Shown here piece after piece: positions 11,308-21,405 of a DNA stretch of 57,259 nt (the stretch's first letter is position 1; the number at the start of each line of letters is the position of its first letter). Source of the DNA: a virus. Lineage: Duplodnaviria; Caudoviricetes. A program made the translations under genes and the position numbers. The notes under the pieces are model-generated. The model did no database searches. It was not told where the DNA came from and saw only the letters and a program-made list of their open reading frames with translations. The stretch lies in IMG/VR virus record IMGVR_UViG_3300022074_000044, positions 1 through 57,259 of that record, one strand, 5' to 3'.

Positions 11308-14300
11308 TTAGATGGAGAAGATTCTCCAACCGTATGTTGAACCAGAGTATACAAGACTAAACGCAGCACCCTCTGTGTTAACAGTTAGGTTAGCAGTGTC
11401 ACCTTGGATTGGTCTACCATTCCTTGAAACGACTAGTGCGTTAGAGTCAAATGTCTTAGCAACGTCATAGAATGTAATTGTTGCACCTGTGTTAGGAGAT
11501 GCAGGGAGTGTTGCAGTTACCTGTCCACCACCAGTGTTAACGAAGTAGTGTTCTCCAGCATTAGGACTGAAGTTAGATGAAACTGTACTGTATGAAGTAA
11601 CACCAGGCTGAATCCACTGAGTTCCATCATAGTACTCAAGAGCACCGAGGTCTGTGTTGAATCTTAAACAACCAGTGTTGAATTCATCGTCAATGCCGCC
11701 AGGTCTTTGAGCGGTTGTACCTACAGGAGGTGTCATCGCCTTAGTACCCATTGAACCACGAGTTACGAATCCCTTAACAGCAAATTCAGTAGGACACGCA
11801 CCGTTGGAGTTACCAGCAAGTGCAGGGTCAGAGGAGAATTCAGAGATCGCCTCACCGACCTGACCTCCAAGAGAACCAAGTCTCAATTCTGTCAAACCAG
11901 ATAGGTTGAACGCAGAAGCATCCAATGTCGCACGACCAGTCAACTGGTCAACGGAGAAGAAGTCTCCAACTCTGAAGTTACCACCTTGGTCGGTTGATAC
12001 GAAGAACACCTTACCAGGCCCGAATACGTTAGTCTCGTTACCTTGAATAACGTTTGCCAAATTAACATTTGGATAACCAGTTTCTGTTTTGTTACCAGTA
12101 CCAACTGCGAGGAAGTCATGTCCTGTTAGTCTTGCCTGTGAGAACAGTGTTCTGATTGTAATTGTAGATCCATAAGAAACGTTGTCCGCATCTATGTTTC
12201 TAGTATCCCATGTACCAGTTGCTTTCTCTGGTGAGATCGATAACGTAGCACGATTATAGAATATCGTTGCGATACCAGCCGTCGATCCAGCCTGCCATTC
12301 ATAGTAGGTCTTAGCAACAGCGACGTTCGTTATAGTGTTAATAATGAAGAATCTATCAGTTGCACCATAGAGTGTGGTTGAGAATCCGATAGCATCACCG
12401 ACCAGTAGGGTTCCAGAAGTCTGGTCAATTTCCATAATTGTTCCTTTCTGTCCTGTGACTGAACTTGCGGCCGCTCCGACTGCAATCGAACCAATACCAG
12501 AACTCTGTTCTGCACCAGCACCGAACCAGATGGTCTCACCATCTACGAAACCAGTGGTTCCGATTCCAGCATTACCGTATCCAGACTGATACTTGAAGTA
12601 AATCTTATCAGCAGCGATTTGGTCATTCAAGAACCATGCAGTTGCCTTGGATGTAGTACCGAACATTGTAGCACCGATTGCAAGTGTTCCGCCCTTAGTT
12701 ACACCTTGAACTGTCATCATGTCACCGAAGAGTTTTGCTTCTCTTGGTACTTCATCAGTTGAGAAACCAGATGAGATAACACCGTAGTCTCCATAAGAGT
12801 TGTTTCCACCAACACCCCTGATTCTTGATCCACCACCTGAGTAGTAACCCCACTTAGCGTAGTATGTGAAACAGGAAACGATTTCAGCGATTGCACCCTT
12901 ATCAAGAATGTAACCAGCACCATCAGATGCAACGTGCGTAAACGCATCGAACACCATTGATTTCGCACCGACATCGTGTACTCCACCATCGATGAATACA
13001 CCGACACCACCACCACCGAATCTTGCAGGGATTGCCTCTGTAGCAGGGTCTGAGAAACAAGTACAATCCTTAACGTAAGGTGACTTGTTATTAATTGGTG
13101 AGTCTGGGTTCAATGAGATGAATACACCAGCAGCAGTTGTACCAATACCAGTTCTTAGGTTTGTATTGTCAAGAACTAGAGGAGCGTTAGGATCATAGTA
13201 GAATCCTTCCATTCCTTTCATGGAGATCGCCTGAATTGTTGTTGCATCAGACATCTTGAACATATGACTCCTGTTATTAGGAGTTGTTGAATCATCAGAT
13301 GTTCCAATTTTAGGTAGAACCTGTGAACCTCTAAGTGCGTTACCAACGATAGAAGTGAAAGGAGGAACTGTAACTGGTAACTGTTCGTAGAACTGAGACG
13401 CAGATAGTTTCAAGATAGCAGGTGTTAGGTCTGTAACTGTACCGCCTTCAACGTATGTGTGGTTGATAGATGAGATACCAACGTTAACCTTGAATGTCTG
13501 TGTATCAGGAACTTCAAGAACCTCATAGTAAGACTTAGATACCTTATCGGGATACTTGGTTGTTGTTAAACCAACGAACGCAGTACCACCAGAAACATAG
13601 AGGTAATCAGTAGTTGAAACACCTACGTTTAGAGTGATTGAGTTAGAGTCGGGTACACCTTGAACAACGAACTCATAAGTACCTTGAGTATGTACAGCAG
13701 GGAACTTACCAGTGATTGTTTGGTCATCAGATGCAGTACCAACGTTAATTGTAATTGTGTTGGTTGTAGTTGATGTAATATTAAGAGCAGTGTTATATGC
13801 AGGGTCTGGGTTTCCGTCTCCAGCAACAGCACGAGGATATGGGTGATCAGTTGTATAACCGTCCATTGAACAACGGAATGTCATACCTTCTGTTTCTAGT
13901 CTTACAGATGTACCAACTGTTAGTGAGTGAGCACCGATTGTGCAAACCATGTCACCAGTGTTCTCGTTATAAGAAACAGCAGTTGGTTCATGGTTAACGA
14001 TTGGAGAAGATCCAACGTTTATAGTGAATGTATCAGTTGTTGTACCTGTAATTGCTAATTGTTGTCCTACAGCAGGGTCTTTTCCAGCACGAGGATAAGT
14101 CTTCTGTGTGGCGTTGTTGTTCATTGTACATGTGAACGTAAACGCATCGTTGGAAATAGTAACTTTATCAGAAGTTGATAGACTATGACCAGCAAGGGTC
14201 ATTACGAAGTTACCATTTGAAGGATCGTATGTCGCACTTGTTGGAGTTATACCTGATCCACCAACAACTTGAACACCGTTTGTTGCACAACTGTTGAATG

Positions 14301-15762
14301 TGTGAACGTAGTCACCACCAGATTGGATAGCGTTAGCTAATGCACTCTTGAATGTATGAGCGAATCTTGCAGAACCTGTGTACTGAACACTTAAGTTTCT
14401 GATTCTAACAGTCGCACCGATTCCAATTTCGGGAGCACCACCAAGACCGATAGCAGTTATAGTTGCAAGTCCAACAGCCTTGTTGTATGTCATACCCAAG
14501 ACGTTGAATACATTACCTCCAGATAGACACTCAAACTGAATATCTTGTAACTGAACGAATGTACCAGTGTTTAATAGACCGTGACCAGCCGCAGTAACCG
14601 TTGCCACACCAGTGGAAGCGGTATACACCATATCAGTGATCGAAGTTTGTGGACGTGCAGCAATACAAGCCCTCTTAATAGTCTTAAACGCCAAGTTAGG
14701 TGCAAGACCATTGTTTGTGTCAACTCCATCCTCAGAGTCAACGTAGTAAATTCTAGTCTGGTTTCCTACAATCTCGTAACCAGGCATTCCGTTTGCCTGA
14801 ACTGCAAGAGCGTAACCTGTAGATCCAATACCAATTCTTACGTTACCTGAGTTGTAACTTAGTAAGTCACCCTTAGTGTTAAGAGCAGCGGATGAATCTC
14901 CTGATGCAAGTACTTCCCAGAATGTTCCGATTCCAGCAGTAGGAATAACGTTCTGATGAGAGTTACCAACAGAAACATATGAATCTGAACCGTATCTTGC
15001 AACATGGCCTGGATGATAGTTGAAGGTAGTGGAGAAGCCACCTTTAAAATCAAATCCTTTAACAAGTAAATCCCATACTTGTTCACCATTGTATGCTTCG
15101 GGGAAGATAGATCCAACACCAATTTGGAGTGGAGAAACGTTAGTTGTAACACCTATTGTGTGACGGTAAATGTTACCACCATACTGGATGAGGTCGCCTC
15201 TGTAGTATGAACCTTCTGTATATGTTACTGCAGCACCAGCAAGACCGTCAGATAAGATACTCCATTTTGCAGAAGGGTCTGTAGAAACACCCAAATACTG
15301 TGGAGGTTGGAATCCAGCAAGTGAAGTTGTTAGAGCAACGTAAGATGAACCATTGTAGTTAACAACGTCACCTGATTGGTATTCATTGTTCTGATCCCAA
15401 GTTCCTTCGTTTTGAAATCCTTTTACATACTCAGTAACTTTCGTCTCGTCGATGAAAGTTCCTTCTGATGTATGTGCAGTTGTTACTCTATAAACAACGT
15501 TACCGTATTTTACAATATCGTTGATACGATAGTAAACTCCAGCAGCCCATTGTCCTTTTTGTTCTAGACCTTCTATGTGAACATTCCAGTTTCCAAGGTC
15601 GTTAGAATAAAAGTCACTGGCATTTGCGGTGGATGTGTGGTTTGTGATCGCCACATAAGTATTGCCACCAAACTTAACGATGTCGTCAATTAAGTAGCTT
15701 TTGGATACTGCCCAGTCACCTGTCCAGTTGAATTTTACTCTTCCAAGTCTAAACTCAGCCAT
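11308..15762 (-). CDS. Tail fibre protein (1484 aa) with N-terminal carbohydrate-binding-like repeats, beta-helix-like region and C-terminal fibre domain
   Basis: Repeats of G.W.....Y...D+V.YGG..Y; YYVDSEDGVDTNNG...AFKTIKRA / FYEQLPVTVPPFTSIVGNALR pectin-lyase-like start; PVGTTAQRP...LRFNTD...EYYDGTQW; C-terminal YFVNT...TLPASP...GWR. Confidence 0.8.
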   Translation of the reverse strand: MAEFRLGRVKFNWTGDWAVSKSYLIDDIVKFGGNTYVAITNHTSTANASDFYSNDLGNWNVHIEGLEQKGQWAAGVYYRINDIVKYGNVVYRVTTAHTSEGTFIDETKVTEYVKGFQNEGTWDQNNEYQSGDVVNYNGSSYVALTTSLAGFQPPQYLGVSTDPSAKWSILSDGLAGAAVTYTEGSYYRGDLIQYGGNIYRHTIGVTTNVSPLQIGVGSIFPEAYNGEQVWDLLVKGFDFKGGFSTTFNYHPGHVARYGSDSYVSVGNSHQNVIPTAGIGTFWEVLASGDSSAALNTKGDLLSYNSGNVRIGIGSTGYALAVQANGMPGYEIVGNQTRIYYVDSEDGVDTNNGLAPNLAFKTIKRACIAARPQTSITDMVYTASTGVATVTAAGHGLLNTGTFVQLQDIQFECLSGGNVFNVLGMTYNKAVGLATITAIGLGGAPEIGIGATVRIRNLSVQYTGSARFAHTFKSALANAIQSGGDYVHTFNSCATNGVQVVGGSGITPTSATYDPSNGNFVMTLAGHSLSTSDKVTISNDAFTFTCTMNNNATQKTYPRAGKDPAVGQQLAITGTTTDTFTINVGSSPIVNHEPTAVSYNENTGDMVCTIGAHSLTVGTSVRLETEGMTFRCSMDGYTTDHPYPRAVAGDGNPDPAYNTALNITSTTTNTITINVGTASDDQTITGKFPAVHTQGTYEFVVQGVPDSNSITLNVGVSTTDYLYVSGGTAFVGLTTTKYPDKVSKSYYEVLEVPDTQTFKVNVGISSINHTYVEGGTVTDLTPAILKLSASQFYEQLPVTVPPFTSIVGNALRGSQVLPKIGTSDDSTTPNNRSHMFKMSDATTIQAISMKGMEGFYYDPNAPLVLDNTNLRTGIGTTAAGVFISLNPDSPINNKSPYVKDCTCFSDPATEAIPARFGGGGVGVFIDGGVHDVGAKSMVFDAFTHVASDGAGYILDKGAIAEIVSCFTYYAKWGYYSGGGSRIRGVGGNNSYGDYGVISSGFSTDEVPREAKLFGDMMTVQGVTKGGTLAIGATMFGTTSKATAWFLNDQIAADKIYFKYQSGYGNAGIGTTGFVDGETIWFGAGAEQSSGIGSIAVGAAASSVTGQKGTIMEIDQTSGTLLVGDAIGFSTTLYGATDRFFIINTITNVAVAKTYYEWQAGSTAGIATIFYNRATLSISPEKATGTWDTRNIDADNVSYGSTITIRTLFSQARLTGHDFLAVGTGNKTETGYPNVNLANVIQGNETNVFGPGKVFFVSTDQGGNFRVGDFFSVDQLTGRATLDASAFNLSGLTELRLGSLGGQVGEAISEFSSDPALAGNSNGACPTEFAVKGFVTRGSMGTKAMTPPVGTTAQRPGGIDDEFNTGCLRFNTDLGALEYYDGTQWIQPGVTSYSTVSSNFSPNAGEHYFVNTGGGQVTATLPASPNTGATITFYDVAKTFDSNALVVSRNGRPIQGDTANLTVNTEGAAFSLVYSGSTYGWRIFSI

Positions 15763-16203: not shown

Positions 16204-16662
16204 TTAACTTGCCCTATTGTTGAATACTTTCCAAAGAGTTCCATTCCAAATAAAGGTCACTGACGCACCCGACACGTCCATGATGAAAGGTGAAGATTCT
16301 CTAACTAAGTGTCCATTTTCAAAACTGTAAACAGATGTCACACTAACAGGGTTGATACTGAAGAAATTCGCAAAGTCTTCGATCCATACCCAGTCACCAA
16401 CCGCACGAGGAGTTGGCATAGTTAGACTGTAACCACCAGATGTATTTTGGGAGTCTACTGTATACTTTTGGTTTGTACCAAGAGAATACGCTCCAGACAC
16501 GAAAGTCCATCTTGCTTTCGCAAGTTCAAATCCGCCAGGAGTTGATCCGTCGTGAACAACCGCCGTATTCTTGTCTGTATCTACCGTTATCTCTGCTAGA
16601 GCTCCAGTAAAGTTAAAGTGTTCAGCTGTCGTTCCTTTTCTGAATTGAACCTGCTTTGTCAT
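16204..16662 (-). CDS. Short fibre protein with major-tropism-determinant-like N-terminal domain
   Basis: QVQFRKGTTAEHFNFTGALAEITVDTDKNTAVVHDGSTPGG; its C-terminal domain resembles the tail fibre C-terminus. Confidence 0.75.
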   Translation of the reverse strand: MTKQVQFRKGTTAEHFNFTGALAEITVDTDKNTAVVHDGSTPGGFELAKARWTFVSGAYSLGTNQKYTVDSQNTSGGYSLTMPTPRAVGDWVWIEDFANFFSINPVSVTSVYSFENGHLVRESSPFIMDVSGASVTFIWNGTLWKVFNNRAS

Positions 16663-16694: not shown

Positions 16695-19400
16695 TTATTT
16701 ATAGGAATTAAATAATGACAACATAGGTTCTACCTTCCTCAATGACTGCATACTCTGTTTGAGCAATACCGAAGGAGTTAACCTGACCAATACCAACGTA
16801 AGTTGCACGAGCTTGAGATTCCTTAGCTCCTGCAAGTCCCTTGAAGAATCCTTGAGTCGTGTAATTGCCTTTCGTGACTGATTCGAGAGCAGATCCACTG
16901 GTCTTGTAAAGAACTGCAACACCAATACCAATCGAAGGTGTGTAATCGACGAATGGATGTACAAGAGAAGTATTCGATATTGTAAATGTTCCTGATGGAA
17001 CGAAGTCTTGGAATACTTGGAAGTATCTGGTCGCTGCATCTCCAAATATAGTTGTGATACCAGATGTGCCTGGATCTCTGTCGTCTCCATAGTATCCGTA
17101 TACTTGATTGAGAGCGGTAAGTGCAGAAGCGCCTTTTGTGTCGAAGAGGACTGTACCCTCGACGGAATCGGCTGTAAATCTGACAACTGATGCACCAGAG
17201 AATGTAGCAATACCAACTCCAATCTCTCTGAAGAATCCTTTCTCGTCGGCAGTTCCAGATATAGTAACATTTCCAATACCAGTGTATGCTGGTGTGTAGT
17301 CGATATCTGGATGTGTAAGTTCTCCAGATATTGTGAATGTACCAGATGGAACGAAGTCTTGGAAGACTGCCAATGTTCTTGTGTCTGCATCTCCACTGAT
17401 TCTTGTAAGAATTGCACTTGCAGCAGATGGTTCGACTGTTGCCTCTGCAGCAGATCCAAGTGCAAAGAGAGAACCAGATCCAGTAGCTGACAGACGAACA
17501 CCAGATAGAACAACGTTGTCTCTTCTGAGTGTAATAGTTCCAGATCCATCGAACTCTCGTAGGCGGAAGGCGACACTTTCTCCAGATAGTGTAAGTGTTG
17601 CAGTATTCTCTGGAGTCTGAGCGATGAATGATTCTTCTGCCGTTCCGTTGAATATTGATGTACCAGCAACAAGTTCTGCACTTGTCTTGGTCTCCGATAT
17701 ACCACCGATTGCGAATAGAGATCCACCACCGACTTCGGAGAATGTTGTTGCTTCGTCTTGACCAGCACCACTGTAAGTGAATGTGCCAGATCCGACTTCT
17801 GGAACGACGAATTTCTCGATTGTGAGAATACCACCTTCCTGACGAACTGTAAATCCACCAGATGTGCCTGGATCGTTGTCGTCTCCATAGTATCCAAAGA
17901 CTTGAACTGGCCTTGCTTCTGCTCCAGTTGTCTGGAAGTCGAATAGGAGAGATCCAGCACCAAACTCGGTAGCGGGAACAAATCTTTCCTTCGCACCGAA
18001 TTCGACTCCTTCGAGATCTCCTTCCTCGTCTGGGCCTCCAACACCGTTTCCAGCAGTACCAATACCAAGAATGTAGATAACACCGTGAGTTGATATAGGT
18101 GCGTTTGTTCTGGATATTGAACGACCATCGAGTTTGAGGACAGGACCAACAGATGGATATTTCGGAATGAACCTTGTGGTAACAATGCCAGGATCTCCGT
18201 ATTCCCCTCCAGAACTTCCAGGCTTGAGTGTAAGTCCAGTCTCGATACCAATGTTCCTTTCGATACCATAATGAGGTGTGTAGTCGATATCTGGATGCTG
18301 TAGATCTCCGATAAGACGTAGAACAGCCTTCTCTGATTGTGAAGCGTAAGTAGCTTTGAGATCTGTGTATCCACCACCGTAGATGTGTAGGTAAGTTCCC
18401 TCTGGAGGATCGAAGCTGGACTTGACAACTGCACTGCCTCTGAATGTCTGAATACCAACAGGAGAAATGTGATCGATAACTCTTGCGTATGTTGATATTC
18501 CAATACCCCTTGTAAGAGGTAGAGTTCCAGATCCAACAAAGTCTCTTGTGCGACTGTAAGTGGTAATTCCAGATGTCTCGAATAGAACAGTTCCTTCTGG
18601 AGTCTGAGCAATGTATCTTTCTTTTGCACCACTAACGAAGTCGAATAGAGATGTTGTACTACTTGCAACAGCAACTTTCTCTCCGCCAGTTCCAGAAATG
18701 GTGATTGTACCAGAACCACGGTAGAATGGGAAGAATATTGGAACCCCTGATGTGATTCCTCCAGTGAAGTTGACACTTCCATATGGGAATATAGCTTCCT
18801 GTGGAGTGGTTTCATCGACCCAACCATAATCAGTGAATCCTCTATTAACATTCTGTTGAGTGAATCCGTTATCCCAAGGATATGTTCTAGTGTATGGACG
18901 ACCACCGCCAGAAGATACTCCAATAATTCCGTAATCTTCTCCGATTTCATTGGAACTAAAGTTGATGTTATATTGATTAGTTTTATCGAATGAAGGTACA
19001 AGACCAGTACCACTAACTGCCTCGTCGTATGTAAGACCACCAGTATTTTCATTATCAAAGGTGATTGCACCATCATCAAGAGACTCGACACTTGGCATAC
19101 CAGCTCCTTGCTGGTTGAATCCAAATCCTTGAGCAACATCAAGTTCACTAATGAGACCGTAATCTTCGTTCTCTGTTCCCCTAAAGATAGAGAATTGATT
19201 GTAGGAATCTGTATTCTTCTCAAAGATATCCTTACCACTGAAGAATAATGTTCCACCAAACTCATCTTCTGGGTGTTGGATAACTCGTGCATATGTCTGA
19301 CCCTCTTCTCTGCCAGTTGTAAGAGTAACATCGAGAGTGGATGATATATGTGGAGCAAAGTTGACGTTTGCAGCACCAGTAAGTGACTGATAAGAACCAA
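16695..19400 (-). CDS. Candidate overlapping gene in the +1 frame (901 aa), no recognisable homology
   Basis: 901 codons without a stop; TTG start with AAGGA 8 nt upstream; see findings. Confidence 0.4.
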   Translation of the reverse strand: MVLISHLLVLQTSTLLHIYHPLSMLLLQLAEKRVRHMHELSNTQKMSLVEHYSSVVRISLRRIQIPTINSLSLGEQRTKITVSLVNLMLLKDLDSTSKELVCQVSSLLMMVQSPLIMKILVVLHTTRQLVVLVLYLHSIKLINITSTLVPMKSEKITELLEYLLAVVVHTLEHILGITDSLNRMLIEDSLIMVGSMKPLHRKLYSHMEVSTSLEESHQGFQYSSHSTVVLVQSPFLELAERKLLLQVVQHLYSTSLVVQKKDTLLRLQKELFYSRHLELPLTVAQETLLDLELYLLQGVLEYQHTQELSITFLLLVFRHSEAVQLSSPASILQRELTYTSTVVDTQISKLLTLHNQRRLFYVLSEIYSIQISTTHLIMVSKGTLVSRLDLHSSLEVLEGNTEILALLPQGSFRNIHLLVLSSNSMVVQYPEQTHLYQLTVLSTFLVLVLLETVLEAQTRKEISKESNSVRRKDLFPLPSLVLDLSYSTSRQLEQKQGQFKSLDTMETTTIQAHLVDLQFVRKVVFSQSRNSSFQKSDLAHSLTVVLVKTKQQHSPKSVVDLYSQSVVYRRPRQVQNLLLVHQYSTERQKNHSSLRLQRILQHLHYLEKVSPSAYESSMDLELLHSEETTLFYLVFVCQLLDLVLSLHLDLLQRQQSNHLLQVQFLQESVEMQTQEHWQSSKTSFHLVHSQYLENLHIQISTTHQHTLVLEMLLYLELPTRKDSSERLELVLLHSLVHQLSDLQPIPSRVQSSSTQKALLHLPLSIKYTDTMETTEIQAHLVSQLYLEMQRPDTSKYSKTSFHQEHLQYRILLLYIHSSITHLRLVLVLQFFTRPVDLLSNQSRKAITRLKDSSRDLQELRNLKLVQLTLVLVRLTPSVLLKQSMQSLRKVEPMLSLFNSYK
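16696..16703 (-). promoter_or_regulatory. T4-type late promoter TATAAATA
   Basis: Exact consensus in the intergenic gap. Confidence 0.8.
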
Positions 19401-21348
19401 CGAGGTATTCCTTGACAGAAGCCTCTACCGCACCACCAAACTTGAATAGTGAACCTGATCCCTCTGGTATGAATGGAGTAATAGACTCATTACCAGTGCC
19501 AAGGATACTGAATTGACCTTCTTCACCGAATACTGTGTGTTGTGGAGCCTGACTGAACCAGTTTGCACCGAAGATGTTGATGCCAGCCTTGTATGTGGCA
19601 ATACCAGTAATACCAGAGGACTCGTATTGAATTGCAGCTGCAACATCGAGATCTTCTGAAAGTAGGAAGGTTGCCGTTCCTGTAACTCCAACAGTTTGTT
19701 TGGTAAATGAAGTTTCTCCAAGAGAGAATGTAATTTCTCTGTTGGGATAATGTTGACCACCAATCTGAGCGTAGTTGAAGTTTGGAAGTAAGAATCCCCA
19801 GTTCTCTGCTGACTTGGGTATAGTCTCGTCGTTTGTATTGATGACACCCCAATCTTCGTAAGACTGAGTTGGAGTGGCAGTAATAAGACCCCAATCGACT
19901 TCTTCTGTTTTTTGATCTCCAAGAGGTGATACCCAAGAAGGAGTGTAAACAGGAATACCCTGTTGCATCTCTCCAGAGATATCGAATAGGTTTGTATTCT
20001 CGTAATCCTTCGCAACTTGAATATTGGTTGCAGCACCACTAACATGTAAGGTAACTGTCTGTTCGTCACCCTGTTTAACAAGTTTGATGTCAGATACAGA
20101 ACCAGAAGGTCTGATAAGAGCCTTCCTAGTTGGAGGTATAGAAACTGCAGCATCCGAACCAGTTCCAGATATATCAAAGAGAACTGTACTGATGATACCA
20201 GCAGGGACGAATGATTCGTTTGCACTACCAGATGCAGTAATCGTATCACCGACACCGAATATTGTACTCTGTGGAGCCTGACTGAAGAAGTTGGTTCCAG
20301 AGAATGTTCCTGTACCAGATCCAGAGTATGCAAAGAGTGATTCTTCTGCCGCAGTGCCTTCTTTCTTGAATGTACCAGCACCAGCATATCCCCTGACGAT
20401 AGCATCTCTACCACCAACAAATGTTGACTGATACTCGTCAAGGAATATTCCACCTTGTAATTGTTGTTCTATTACACCGTAATCTTCAGCAGATGTAGGT
20501 GTGTCTAATATACTTCCGTAACTTACAAATTCAACCTGATCTTCGTCAGAGAATGATCTCTCCTTCGCAAGAGGATCTGTGATGGTCTCGTCAAATGTGA
20601 CATTGAGATCATCGAAGGACGCACCTTCCCTAACTGTAATTGTTCCGTTATCTTCTTTCTCGAATACGTCAGACTCAGATCTGGCGTAGTTGTATATGAC
20701 TTTCTCAACGTCAAACAGCCTGGTATCTCCACCCTTCGCTCTAAATGCGTTTTTAATTACAGGGAGATATGCCTGATCATAAGGTGTTGTAGTTGTACCA
20801 CTTAGAGTTACACTACCACTACCATTATAAGGATAAACTTGGTCTAGATCGGTTGCAGATACGCCTGACTTGGCAATCGTACCAACACCATCATAATTTC
20901 CTCTAGATATAGATTCTTCTGCGGTCCCAGATGGGATGAAGATGACAGCCCCTGCCGCTCCGAGATCTGGTATAACAATCCTTTCGAGACCAGAACCGAT
21001 CTCGTGAATTGTACCAGTACCAACCCAAGGAGTTACTGCTGACTCTAGTGCAGAGTCATTTACATCAAATAGTACGGTATTTGCGTTCTCTGGAATCCAT
21101 TGAGATCTAGATCTACCTAGTGCATCTCTTCCATCTACTACATTTATTGGGCCAAACGGTACTATATCTGCTGTAGCGGTGATAAGTCCGTGGTCATTTA
21201 CAAAGAACCAATCTCCATCTCTTTCTGGTTCTACATGTTGATTTATGTCGCCATAGTCAATATTCTCGCTAGATCCCACGGTGATATCTCCACCGTTAAA
21301 TGTAGTGAATACATCTATCTTTGCATTGTCGTAGGTGTATACGGTCAA
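16708..21348 (-). CDS. Large repetitive acidic virion structural protein (1546 aa)
   Basis: G/T/S/E-rich, with repeats EDYG.I, GSG.L...GG..E, HPDIDYTP, GYYGDD.DPGTSG; late-gene context; TTG start uncertain. Confidence 0.8.
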   Translation of the reverse strand: MTVYTYDNAKIDVFTTFNGGDITVGSSENIDYGDINQHVEPERDGDWFFVNDHGLITATADIVPFGPINVVDGRDALGRSRSQWIPENANTVLFDVNDSALESAVTPWVGTGTIHEIGSGLERIVIPDLGAAGAVIFIPSGTAEESISRGNYDGVGTIAKSGVSATDLDQVYPYNGSGSVTLSGTTTTPYDQAYLPVIKNAFRAKGGDTRLFDVEKVIYNYARSESDVFEKEDNGTITVREGASFDDLNVTFDETITDPLAKERSFSDEDQVEFVSYGSILDTPTSAEDYGVIEQQLQGGIFLDEYQSTFVGGRDAIVRGYAGAGTFKKEGTAAEESLFAYSGSGTGTFSGTNFFSQAPQSTIFGVGDTITASGSANESFVPAGIISTVLFDISGTGSDAAVSIPPTRKALIRPSGSVSDIKLVKQGDEQTVTLHVSGAATNIQVAKDYENTNLFDISGEMQQGIPVYTPSWVSPLGDQKTEEVDWGLITATPTQSYEDWGVINTNDETIPKSAENWGFLLPNFNYAQIGGQHYPNREITFSLGETSFTKQTVGVTGTATFLLSEDLDVAAAIQYESSGITGIATYKAGINIFGANWFSQAPQHTVFGEEGQFSILGTGNESITPFIPEGSGSLFKFGGAVEASVKEYLVGSYQSLTGAANVNFAPHISSTLDVTLTTGREEGQTYARVIQHPEDEFGGTLFFSGKDIFEKNTDSYNQFSIFRGTENEDYGLISELDVAQGFGFNQQGAGMPSVESLDDGAITFDNENTGGLTYDEAVSGTGLVPSFDKTNQYNINFSSNEIGEDYGIIGVSSGGGRPYTRTYPWDNGFTQQNVNRGFTDYGWVDETTPQEAIFPYGSVNFTGGITSGVPIFFPFYRGSGTITISGTGGEKVAVASSTTSLFDFVSGAKERYIAQTPEGTVLFETSGITTYSRTRDFVGSGTLPLTRGIGISTYARVIDHISPVGIQTFRGSAVVKSSFDPPEGTYLHIYGGGYTDLKATYASQSEKAVLRLIGDLQHPDIDYTPHYGIERNIGIETGLTLKPGSSGGEYGDPGIVTTRFIPKYPSVGPVLKLDGRSISRTNAPISTHGVIYILGIGTAGNGVGGPDEEGDLEGVEFGAKERFVPATEFGAGSLLFDFQTTGAEARPVQVFGYYGDDNDPGTSGGFTVRQEGGILTIEKFVVPEVGSGTFTYSGAGQDEATTFSEVGGGSLFAIGGISETKTSAELVAGTSIFNGTAEESFIAQTPENTATLTLSGESVAFRLREFDGSGTITLRRDNVVLSGVRLSATGSGSLFALGSAAEATVEPSAASAILTRISGDADTRTLAVFQDFVPSGTFTISGELTHPDIDYTPAYTGIGNVTISGTADEKGFFREIGVGIATFSGASVVRFTADSVEGTVLFDTKGASALTALNQVYGYYGDDRDPGTSGITTIFGDAATRYFQVFQDFVPSGTFTISNTSLVHPFVDYTPSIGIGVAVLYKTSGSALESVTKGNYTTQGFFKGLAGAKESQARATYVGIGQVNSFGIAQTEYAVIEEGRTYVVII
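17060..17895. repeat. Dispersed near-exact DNA repeats inside the 1546-aa gene
   Basis: 17060-17097 vs 17858-17895 (36/38 identical); 17291-17313 = 18275-18297 (23 nt); 16994-17013 = 17345-17364 (20 nt). Confidence 0.9.
19425..20453 (-). CDS. Candidate overlapping gene in the same +1 frame (342 aa)
   Basis: Same frame as the 901-aa ORF, separated from it by one TAG at 19425-19427. Confidence 0.3.
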   Translation of the reverse strand: MEYSLTSISQHLLVVEMLSSGDMLVLVHSRKKALRQKNHSLHTLDLVQEHSLEPTSSVRLHRVQYSVSVIRLLHLVVQTNHSSLLVSSVQFSLIYLELVRMLQFLYLQLGRLLSDLLVLYLTSNLLNRVTNRQLPYMLVVLQPIFKLRRITRIQTYSISLERCNRVFLFTLLLGYHLLEIKKQKKSIGVLLLPLQLSLTKIGVSSIQTTRLYPSQQRTGDSYFQTSTTLRLVVNIIPTEKLHSLLEKLHLPNKLLELQERQPSYFQKISMLQLQFNTSPLVLLVLPHTRLASTSSVQTGSVRLHNTQYSVKKVNSVSLALVMSLLLHSYQRDQVHYSSLVVR

Positions 21349-21362
21349 AGGGATTCCCGAAT

Positions 21363-21395
21363 AAAAAGACCCTGCCTTAGTTATAAAGCAGAGTC
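21363..21395 (-). terminator. 12-bp hairpin with T tract
   Basis: GACTCTGCTTTA-TAAC-TAAGGCAGGGTC followed by a T run (two G-U pairs). Confidence 0.65.
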
Positions 21396-21405
21396 CACAT
21401 ATTGA

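Follow-up and report, generated by a model that had tools for sequence, protein, structure and literature searches.

Hidden stop codons are purged from the out-of-frame readings of one gene family in T4-like cyanophages

The 57,259-nucleotide contig analysed here over its whole length (IMG/VR virus record IMGVR_UViG_3300022074_000044; hereafter the window) carries a gene of 1546 codons, called here the main gene, in which the +1 reading frame of the same strand contains only one internal stop codon over approximately 1250 codons and the +2 frame is open over 602 codons. It was strongly supported that this observation is real and far beyond chance, and likewise that the feature is not an ordinary overlapping gene. 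The comparisons described below demonstrated a purge of off-frame stops that was stop-specific, partly frame-specific and restricted to one gene family. The 57-kb window belongs to a marine cyanophage of the T4-like type, a relative of Synechococcus phage S-SSM7 (Kyanoviridae, Lipsvirus), and its minus strand carries every long gene. The parts of the main gene (frame 0) and of its shadow frames were as follows.

16708-21348, minus strand: main gene in frame 0, 1546 codons plus TAA, with a TTG start at 21348.
20470-21348, minus strand: N-terminal 293 codons with ordinary off-frame stop density, the best-conserved part of the protein.
20469-20471, minus strand: last early +1 stop, a TAG arising from GTA ATA GAA, which forms the boundary; the open stretch 19428-20468 follows directly.
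16695-20468, minus strand: +1 frame stretch of approximately 1258 codons with one internal stop; the TAA that ends it lies 13 nt beyond the stop of the main gene.
19425-20453, minus strand: shadow open reading frame (ORF) of 342 amino acids with a GTG start, from the ORF list, in the +1 frame of the main gene.
19425-19427, minus strand: sole internal +1 stop, a TAG at codon 640 arising from GTA GAG (Val-Glu in frame 0).
16695-19400, minus strand: shadow ORF of 901 amino acids with a TTG start, from the ORF list, in the +1 frame of the main gene.
16826-18631, minus strand: +2 open stretch of 602 codons (codons 905-1506), from the stop scan.

The +1 frame contained 21 stops in codons 0-292, then one at codon 640 and none thereafter to the end of the gene. 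An earlier description of this DNA, made from the letters alone (the sequence-only reading), had reported the two shadow ORFs and the one stop between them, which the ORF list and the stop scan confirmed, and had called the switch abrupt and local, in agreement with these counts and with the normal state of the neighbouring genes. The +2 opening had been missed by that reading and is an addition here; over codons 905-1506, corresponding to 1.8 kb of sense strand, no TAA, TAG or TGA was present in any of the three phases. The NTA codons, previously counted as about 43 before a pyrimidine and one before a purine, were found to number 44 and 1, respectively, in codons 293-1546. The NTG|A route to a +1 TGA had been overlooked; this route is minor here because NTG codons are almost absent from frame 0. 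In the +2 open stretch, none of the 214 NNT codons stood before AA, AG or GA, in contrast to 120 of the 387 NNV codons. The antisense frames of the main gene showed 51, 72 and 133 stops as observed counts only. The TAG at 19425-19427 was present unchanged in contigs from other samples (runs X3, X14 and X17; two DNA libraries and one RNA library), indicating that it was not an assembly error.

Three null models were applied to codons 293-1546, in which 1 stop (+1) and 43 stops (+2) were observed. A synonymous shuffle (n = 1000) that kept the protein and the codon usage of the gene itself gave expectations of 28.1 ± 3.0 stops in +1, with a minimum of 20 in 1000, and 96.4 ± 6.5 in +2. The expectations were 53.3 ± 5.8 and 111.2 with the codon usage of eight neighbouring structural genes, and 53.4 ± 5.2 (minimum 36 in 1000) and 112.2 with a codon-pair-aware null trained on the remaining genes of the window (15,445 codon pairs; 1000 samples). 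The longest open run in the codon-pair-aware null did not exceed 216 codons in +1 or 100 codons in +2, compared with 904 and 602 codons observed, and the second +1 open run of the main gene (347 codons) was also above the 216-codon maximum. The sequence-only reading had named both kinds of shuffle as ways to check its claim, and neither produced a +1 frame as poor in stops as that of the main gene. The N-terminal 293 codons were ordinary, with 20 (+1) and 27 (+2) stops against 22.4 and 28.5 expected from the shuffle. The +2 open stretch contained no stop against 40 expected from the synonymous shuffle and 51.3 from the codon-pair-aware null, while the middle zone was frame-dependent (+1, 1 stop vs 13.6 expected; +2, 38 vs 53.2). 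Codon usage also shifted along the gene, GTA accounting for 16 of 27 Val codons in the N-terminal part and 9 of 85 afterwards.

Homologues were collected by two IMG/VR scans. The first found 27 loci and gave 13 full-length non-redundant sequences with 42-85% protein identity, including the window and S-SSM7; the second found 74 more loci, from which 45 rows were tested after removing duplicates and short pieces, these rows not being independent lineages. The trait was present in 13/13 of the non-redundant homologues, down to 42% identity, and was distributed along the gene as follows.

N-terminal part, 13 homologues: z from -2.8 to +0.2 in both frames.
Middle zone, 13 homologues: 0-3 stops in +1 against 5.3-15.1 expected; z from -2.5 to -6.9 in +2.
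C-terminal approximately 600 codons, 13 homologues: 0-1 stops in +1 against 4.2-14.5 expected; 0-21 stops in +2 against 40-52 expected, z from -6.6 to -10.2.

In S-SSM7, the +1 frame was uninterrupted over 1257 codons and the +2 frame had a run of 398 codons. All 39 of the rows from the second scan that had 38-78% identity (39/39) also showed the trait (z from -3.2 to -9.6 in +1 and from -3.9 to -11.4 in +2), so that no scattered +1 stops were seen in these two sets (0-4 interruptions per sequence). At the position of the window's TAG, the 12 other aligned homologues all had a stop-free codon pair such as GCA GAA or GTC GAA. Openness in relatives and a sense reading at the TAG, two of the points that the sequence-only reading had raised about homologues, were thereby both observed. 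The trait was weak in six rows of a 1092-codon family at 30-31% identity (z from -0.3 to -5.0 in +1 and from -0.5 to -4.4 in +2). The homologue of the isolate Sf-FS3 (41.5% identity) had two +1 stops after codon 278 with z of -5.8/-6.4, and the more distant gene 111 of S-SCSM2R showed weaker depletion (-4.3/-4.1); the genes adjoining these two homologues had normal off-frame stops. The boundary was also shared, as the last early +1 stop lay at alignment column 479 or 480 in 10/13 homologues. Codon identity at conserved residues was 0.45-0.53, compared with the 0.37-0.43 that codon usage by itself would give. At these distances, synonymous sites have almost reached saturation, and the open frames must therefore be actively maintained.

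The depletion did not extend beyond this gene family. In the window, |z| was 2.5 or less for each of the 24 other open stretches of at least 150 codons, whereas the main gene had -7.3/-7.3. A genome-wide control on the complete S-SSM7 genome (132 open stretches of at least 200 codons) found strong depletion only in the homologue of the main gene, SSSM7_110 (z -6.6/-9.3), and in two open stretches nested in its off-frames; the strongest other gene was the 'fiber' gene SSSM7_028, with z of -3.7 in +1 only.

The purge was also weighted toward the 3' end. This was counted in 22 representatives with less than 90% identity, leaving out L091 and L092. The former is an ORF with ordinary +1 stop density (54 in 1266 codons) that was presumed to be a neighbouring gene; the latter, at 38% identity, was open in the last 540 codons only. 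None of the 22 had a +1 stop in the last 600 codons except terminal ones 2-4 codons before the end. Tolerated +1 stops, 1-4 per sequence in several lineages, lay 611-1194 codons before the end and recurred at about 780-800 and 1100-1120 codons before the end, as CTA|A, ATA|A and ATG|A in conserved residue contexts. The +2 purge was likewise concentrated in the 3' part. Selection is graded and not absolute, stops being tolerated in the viable Sf-FS3, the window lineage and others. Such a 3' gradient would follow from a cost that rises as more out-of-frame ribosomes accumulate ahead of the stop. For a protein started near the boundary, early stops would be the most harmful, which is the opposite of the observed pattern.

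A second peculiarity of the main gene concerned its start codons. In-frame ATG, GTG and TTG numbered only 3 in codons 293-1546 (0.24 per 100 codons vs 1.7-4.8 in 11 other genes), and the product lacks cysteine and has only 2 Met in 1546 residues, features common to 12 homologues and the 30%-identity family. TG occurs almost only at codon junctions, and NTG codons therefore fall nearly all in the +1 frame, with 42-117 in matched stretches of 306-947 codons (approximately 11-12 per 100) and 0-6 in frames 0 and +2. Twenty of the +1 NTG codons had a Shine-Dalgarno (SD)-like motif upstream. The gene is flanked by two further signals.

21367-21396, minus strand: terminator-like hairpin (13 pairs, followed by TTTTTATT) that separates the upstream gene from the TTG (-21.8 kcal/mol, z -3.26).
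16696-16703, minus strand: TATAAATA motif, 7 nt after the main stop, overlapping by 2 bp the TAA 16695-16697 that ends the +1 frame.

The same hairpin sequence was found upstream of the TTG in S-SSM7 (L001 5940-5990). The motif TATAAATA has a form that we take to be that of a T4-type late promoter. It lay 5-21 nt after the stop of the main gene in 12/12 loci examined and probably serves the downstream 152-codon 'tail protein' gene. The motif was detected neither between the hairpin 21367-21396 and the TTG start nor inside the main gene, so there is no internal late promoter of this form at the boundary. With its TTG start, the terminator-like hairpin upstream and no late-promoter motif, the main gene looks weakly expressed, and its expression may be by read-through only.

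We give about an even chance to the explanation that the purge reflects selection against the termination of out-of-frame ribosomes, strongest toward the 3' end. Frame 0 encodes the protein proper, presumably a rapidly evolving structural component from the baseplate/tail-fibre block, and selection would strip stops alone, from +1 over the distal 1250 codons and from +2 mainly over the last 600 or so. The off-frame peptides evolve freely, and the selected trait would therefore be that the ribosome is not released inside the message but runs to its 3' end. Out-of-frame ribosomes may arise by slippage or by initiation at the many +1 NTG codons; translation would be the agent, and internal termination would be costly. 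One possible cost is that stable truncated or anchor-only fragments poison assembly, in which case the lack of internal in-frame starts would prevent anchor-less fragments and the lack of hidden stops would prevent clean truncations. Another possible cost is that the weakly initiated 4.6-kb message would lose the ribosomes covering it, run-on ribosomes acting as a shield. Out-of-frame reading of the main gene message seems to matter to the phage, though the off-frame proteins are unconserved.

Several points weigh against selection on termination. The 3000-codon neighbours show no purge, although a generic error cost should hit many genes, and the apparent weak expression of the main gene weakens error-cost arguments. 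The C-terminal zone is without stops in all three phases, and a frame-independent factor is therefore possible there. No enrichment or depletion of SD-plus-start combinations was detected in the +1 frame (20 vs 21.5 expected). Pieces of the main gene occurred as contigs in the RNA-library runs X15 and X17, which are unable to show transcription, frame, strand or level. The opposite view is also the more usual one, namely that stops in the off-frames are neutral or beneficial and that it is the long products of frameshifting that do harm, as put forward in the available parts of two reports (10.1101/2025.10.02.679949; 10.64898/2026.01.14.699446).

An alternative is that the +1 frame, and perhaps the 3' part of +2, is a true product, namely an overprinted protein started at an internal NTG or a transframe frameshift extension, of which the length matters while the sequence is barely constrained. 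Such a product would account for an ORF length conserved over deep divergence, and the restriction to one gene family resembles function rather than generic error control. The abundance of NTG codons in +1, including those after an SD-like motif, would make a single conserved start unnecessary; the AAGGA-N8-TTG arrangement after the TAG, at the 901-amino-acid ORF, is indeed present as the sequence-only reading had reported. Nevertheless, we consider a true product improbable. Frame 0 had coding-type codon usage (log-likelihood +0.62, trained on the window's other genes) and a change pattern of third > first > second position in every zone and homologue pair. Synonymous change, scaled to the average of each of the 36 pairs formed by nine close homologues, was 0.80 of expectation in the N-terminal part, 1.07 in the middle and 1.03 in the C-terminal zone; the suppression anticipated by the sequence-only reading in the open frame was therefore not seen. 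The third positions of frame 0, which are the second positions of +1, changed fastest. Between the window and S-SSM7, frame 0 translations were 74% identical, and those of +1 and +2 were 54.7% and 53.8% identical, the +2 translation not being open from end to end; the +1 peptide was thus conserved no better than the +2 peptide. Codon usage in +1 was of the shadow type (log-likelihood -0.64, compared with -0.18 to -0.72 for the +1 frames of other genes). A Pfam search with both shadow ORFs gave only a sub-threshold hit to DUF6141 (E 0.029, 14.7 bits against a cut-off of 27).

Entry into the +1 frame was no better conserved. No conserved start followed the boundary in the 13 homologues, GTG lying at +6/+7 codons in five, TTG at +10 in four, and others elsewhere. 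Over alignment columns 466-544 of the same sequences, no invariant slippery motif was found besides the codons of conserved residues, RNA structure not having been formally searched, and synonymous conservation around the boundary was unremarkable. Stops split the frame in three in the viable isolate Sf-FS3 and in two in the window lineage. The tolerated stops fall in the 5' half, where a full-length product would suffer the greatest truncation. An open +2 would, in addition, demand triple coding over 600 codons. These results do not support the +1 frame as a conventional overlapping gene and showed no protein-level constraint on the shadow frames. The sequence-only reading had proposed that selection keeps +1 open, which the nulls and homologues upheld, and had offered three forms of this. 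The first, an overprinted gene of the conventional kind, was not supported by synonymous change, peptide, start or codon usage. For the second, no conserved slippery site was found by which a frameshift product would be entered at one fixed site, and read-through is irrelevant, the two ORFs being in different frames. The best fit is the third form, in which termination has to be avoided wherever this region is read out of frame.

A low-depth contig from a relative showed small indel pairs, which were considered as a trace of slippage and set aside, since the pairs lay within 5 nt and are not evidence. Coupling of the +1 stop to the start of the downstream gene was also rejected, the +1 stop lying -5 to +52 nt from the main stop and never at the downstream ATG.

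It is also conceivable, although we think it unlikely, that both shadow frames are translated, ribosomes entering +1 at any of approximately 140 internal NTG codons or by slippage and reading on through as many as 1250 codons until they reach a shared end. Either this flow of run-on ribosomes or what it produces would then be of use to the phage, for example as a shield for the weakly initiated 4.6-kb late message or by keeping assembly-poisoning fragments from being released.

A non-translational cause or compositional side effect, such as a strand-specific factor, a mutational process or a codon-context habit that removes stops, was judged very improbable. The absence of stops from all sense phases of codons 905-1506 is what a frame-blind factor would give, and the main gene has other oddities, including the near absence of TG inside codons. 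The following observations speak against such a cause. Among all 64 triplets, those depleted off-frame were TAA, TAG and TGA and, in addition, two homopolymers (TTT and AAA) that are likewise avoided in the giant neighbour genes. The one-letter neighbours of the stops were not depleted, and some were enriched as the alternative choice (in +1, TAT 30 vs 10.1 expected and TAC 14 vs 7.2; in +2, TGG 109 vs 68.8, TGC 55 vs 35.9 and CGA 47 vs 30.9). A-ending codons other than NTA did not avoid purines, the purine:pyrimidine ratios after NAA, NCA and NGA in codons 293-1546 being 56:32, 100:62 and 65:29; NTA itself had 19:11 in the first 293 codons and 42:29 and 139:73 in two neighbouring genes. The middle zone depends on frame, the codon-pair-aware null of the same genome expects 53 and 112 stops, the first 293 codons and all neighbouring genes are normal, and the pattern is kept at synonymous saturation, beyond the reach of a neutral process. 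As to particular sources, avoidance of T-runs, A-runs or SD-like motifs was present in the main gene (TTTT 0 vs 24.6 expected; AAAA 7 vs 16.7) but is shared by the giant neighbour genes, and copying of a stop-free unit from internal DNA repeats was dismissed because the repeats are short and diverged (no more than 80 nt at 78% identity).

The least probable explanation was tolerance of frameshift mutations for evolvability, by which indel mutants of a host-range protein would stay full length, as in PE_PGRS proteins, for which the concept has been published (PMC13328622, available part); the distal part is indeed fast and mosaic, with divergence ranks that vary by zone, but in 36 nucleotide comparisons (9 homologues) the internal gaps were all multiples of 3 with two exceptions (one of 2 nt located before the start, the other a 2+1 pair lying inside 11 nt), off-frame translations gave no match to the frame-0 family proteins (26 queries, 13 subjects; best E 0.098) or to anything else in the window or S-SSM7, slippery runs are avoided as described above, and it is improbable that over 150 sites could be maintained by second-order selection. 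Cross-frame homology in the form of a repeat unit of non-3 length, a frame-switched allele or an other-frame paralogue was sought and none was found.

The surroundings of the main gene were compared with those in S-SSM7. The gene order matches, comprising gp6, two 3000-codon gp7-like genes, gp8, a 2500-codon gene and small structural genes, followed by the main gene, a 'tail protein' and a 'tail fiber-like protein'. The product of the main gene is accordingly a putative virion or tail protein of the baseplate/tail-fibre block, as suggested by gene order alone (synteny with gp6, gp7, gp8 and tail-fibre genes). Its homologues in S-SSM7 (SSSM7_110) and Sf-FS3 (gene 93) are both annotated 'hypothetical protein'. 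A Pfam search with the product gave no match and an ESM Atlas search no usable match; a weak match to PHROG 11522, of unknown function, was obtained (E 1.8e-8). An AlphaFold2 model of the C-terminal 641 residues from 12 sequences had a mean pLDDT of 26 and was unusable. The gene has 78.8% nucleotide and 74% amino acid identity to that of S-SSM7, with 88% amino acid identity in the N-terminal 293 codons vs 71% in the remainder. Its TTG start aligns with TTG in S-SSM7 and with ATG in distant homologues. The annotated GTG start of SSSM7_110 lies 23 codons 3' of this TTG (record 88177 vs 88246; L001 5987-5989 vs 6056), and protein similarity starts at the TTG; the deposited start is probably too far downstream.

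Further observations on the main gene were made in passing. Divergence ranks shift among the N-terminal, middle and C-terminal zones, L006 and L007 being closer in the C-terminal than in the N-terminal zone and L003 and L007 showing the reverse, which indicates probable recombination of alleles in the main gene, with a fast-evolving, mosaic distal part. In a G-S-G-T motif at alignment columns 539-542 (window approximately 20300-20330), the TCT GGT codons were invariant at all positions in 13/13 homologues, including those at 42% identity, and the same DNA word occurs at least 5 times in the main gene. Near-identical sequence to 16695-21348 was present in runs of 12 studies from 2017-2025, mostly marine viral metagenomes; judged by these matches, the window lineage appears widespread and persistent.

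Among the neighbours, the giant genes of 2507, 2997 and 3000 codons (window 23719-51926, minus strand) strongly avoid TTTT and SD-like motifs and are enriched in off-frame start codons (z +8 to +11 vs synonymous shuffles); in S-SSM7, the equivalents of the two 3000-codon genes carry the annotation gp7 'baseplate wedge initiator'. The 152-codon 'tail protein' (16204-16662, minus strand) matched PHROG 9648, as did the last 95 or so residues of the 1484-codon tail-fibre protein (11308-15762, minus strand), and the Sf-FS3 counterpart of the 152-codon protein is annotated with an Mtd N-terminal domain.

Literature searches, which did not include supplements, brought up no account of the shadow frames of the main gene, nor of any phage in which off-frame stops are purged from a particular gene. 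In overprinted genes, synonymous change in the host frame is lowered and the new protein is to some extent constrained. Like overprinted viral genes, the main gene has a long nested ORF on the same strand that exceeds codon-permutation nulls and is kept open in relatives; unlike them, its shadow has neither suppressed synonymous change nor peptide constraint, a second off-frame is open, and the frame is broken in viable relatives. If the shadow frames were translated products, they would raise the known limit of overlap length several-fold, and if both were translated, the main gene would be the longest same-strand overlap known and the first known case of an overlapping reading selected solely for being uninterrupted. 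For annotation, the case is a warning that a very long conserved ORF may not be a usual gene, since length or conserved openness alone would have led to a false call here. HIV-1 asp and influenza A NEG8 are antisense ORFs of a few hundred codons in shallow lineages with a protein-level signature that is disputed or absent. They share with the main gene a long ORF preserved in a non-coding frame of a viral lineage, whereas the shadow described here is on the same strand, spans approximately 1250 codons and is held to 42% identity. Programmed frameshifting in phage tail genes, of the lambda G/GT type, yields a short conserved extension. The main gene resembles it as a presumed tail-module gene with an alternative frame open downstream of a defined point, but no conserved slippery heptamer or stimulator was found at the boundary (no formal RNA-structure search being made), and the 1250 codons are unconstrained.

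The PE_PGRS genes of Mycobacterium tuberculosis also have few off-frame stops, so that reading continues after a change of frame. According to the available part of the source, they encode variable surface proteins, their depletion stems for the most part passively from a high GC content, and alleles with a changed frame do occur (PMC13328622). The main gene differs in having a GC of 0.43-0.44, an active purge, avoidance of mutation-prone runs and no frame-changed allele that could be found.

The ambush hypothesis of hidden stop codons is said to go back to Seligmann and Pollock in 2004. The question in work on off-frame stops has been whether they are enriched to catch frameshifted ribosomes, and the reported effects are small and disputed. 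The eukaryotic route of message decay, nonsense-mediated decay, is absent from bacteria. In fungi and human cells, hidden stops have been described as the link between +1 frameshifting and decay of the message, which in fungi is stabilised when they are removed (10.64898/2026.01.14.699446, available part), and off-frame stops have been argued to limit harmful long frameshift products (10.1101/2025.10.02.679949, available part). The main gene is like the ambush hypothesis in that selection would act on off-frame stops via the fate of frameshifted ribosomes, and unlike it in sign, hidden stops being purged in one gene family by context-dependent codon choice. It is the opposite case with a very large effect, as more than 150 codon junctions are kept without hidden stops by context-dependent synonymous choice. 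If selection against out-of-frame termination is the cause, the fitness cost of out-of-frame reading would be large enough to shape a 4-kb sequence, and the isolates S-SSM7 and Sf-FS3, with the hosts Synechococcus WH8109 and WH8102, respectively, according to their records, would offer a natural system for measuring such a cost.

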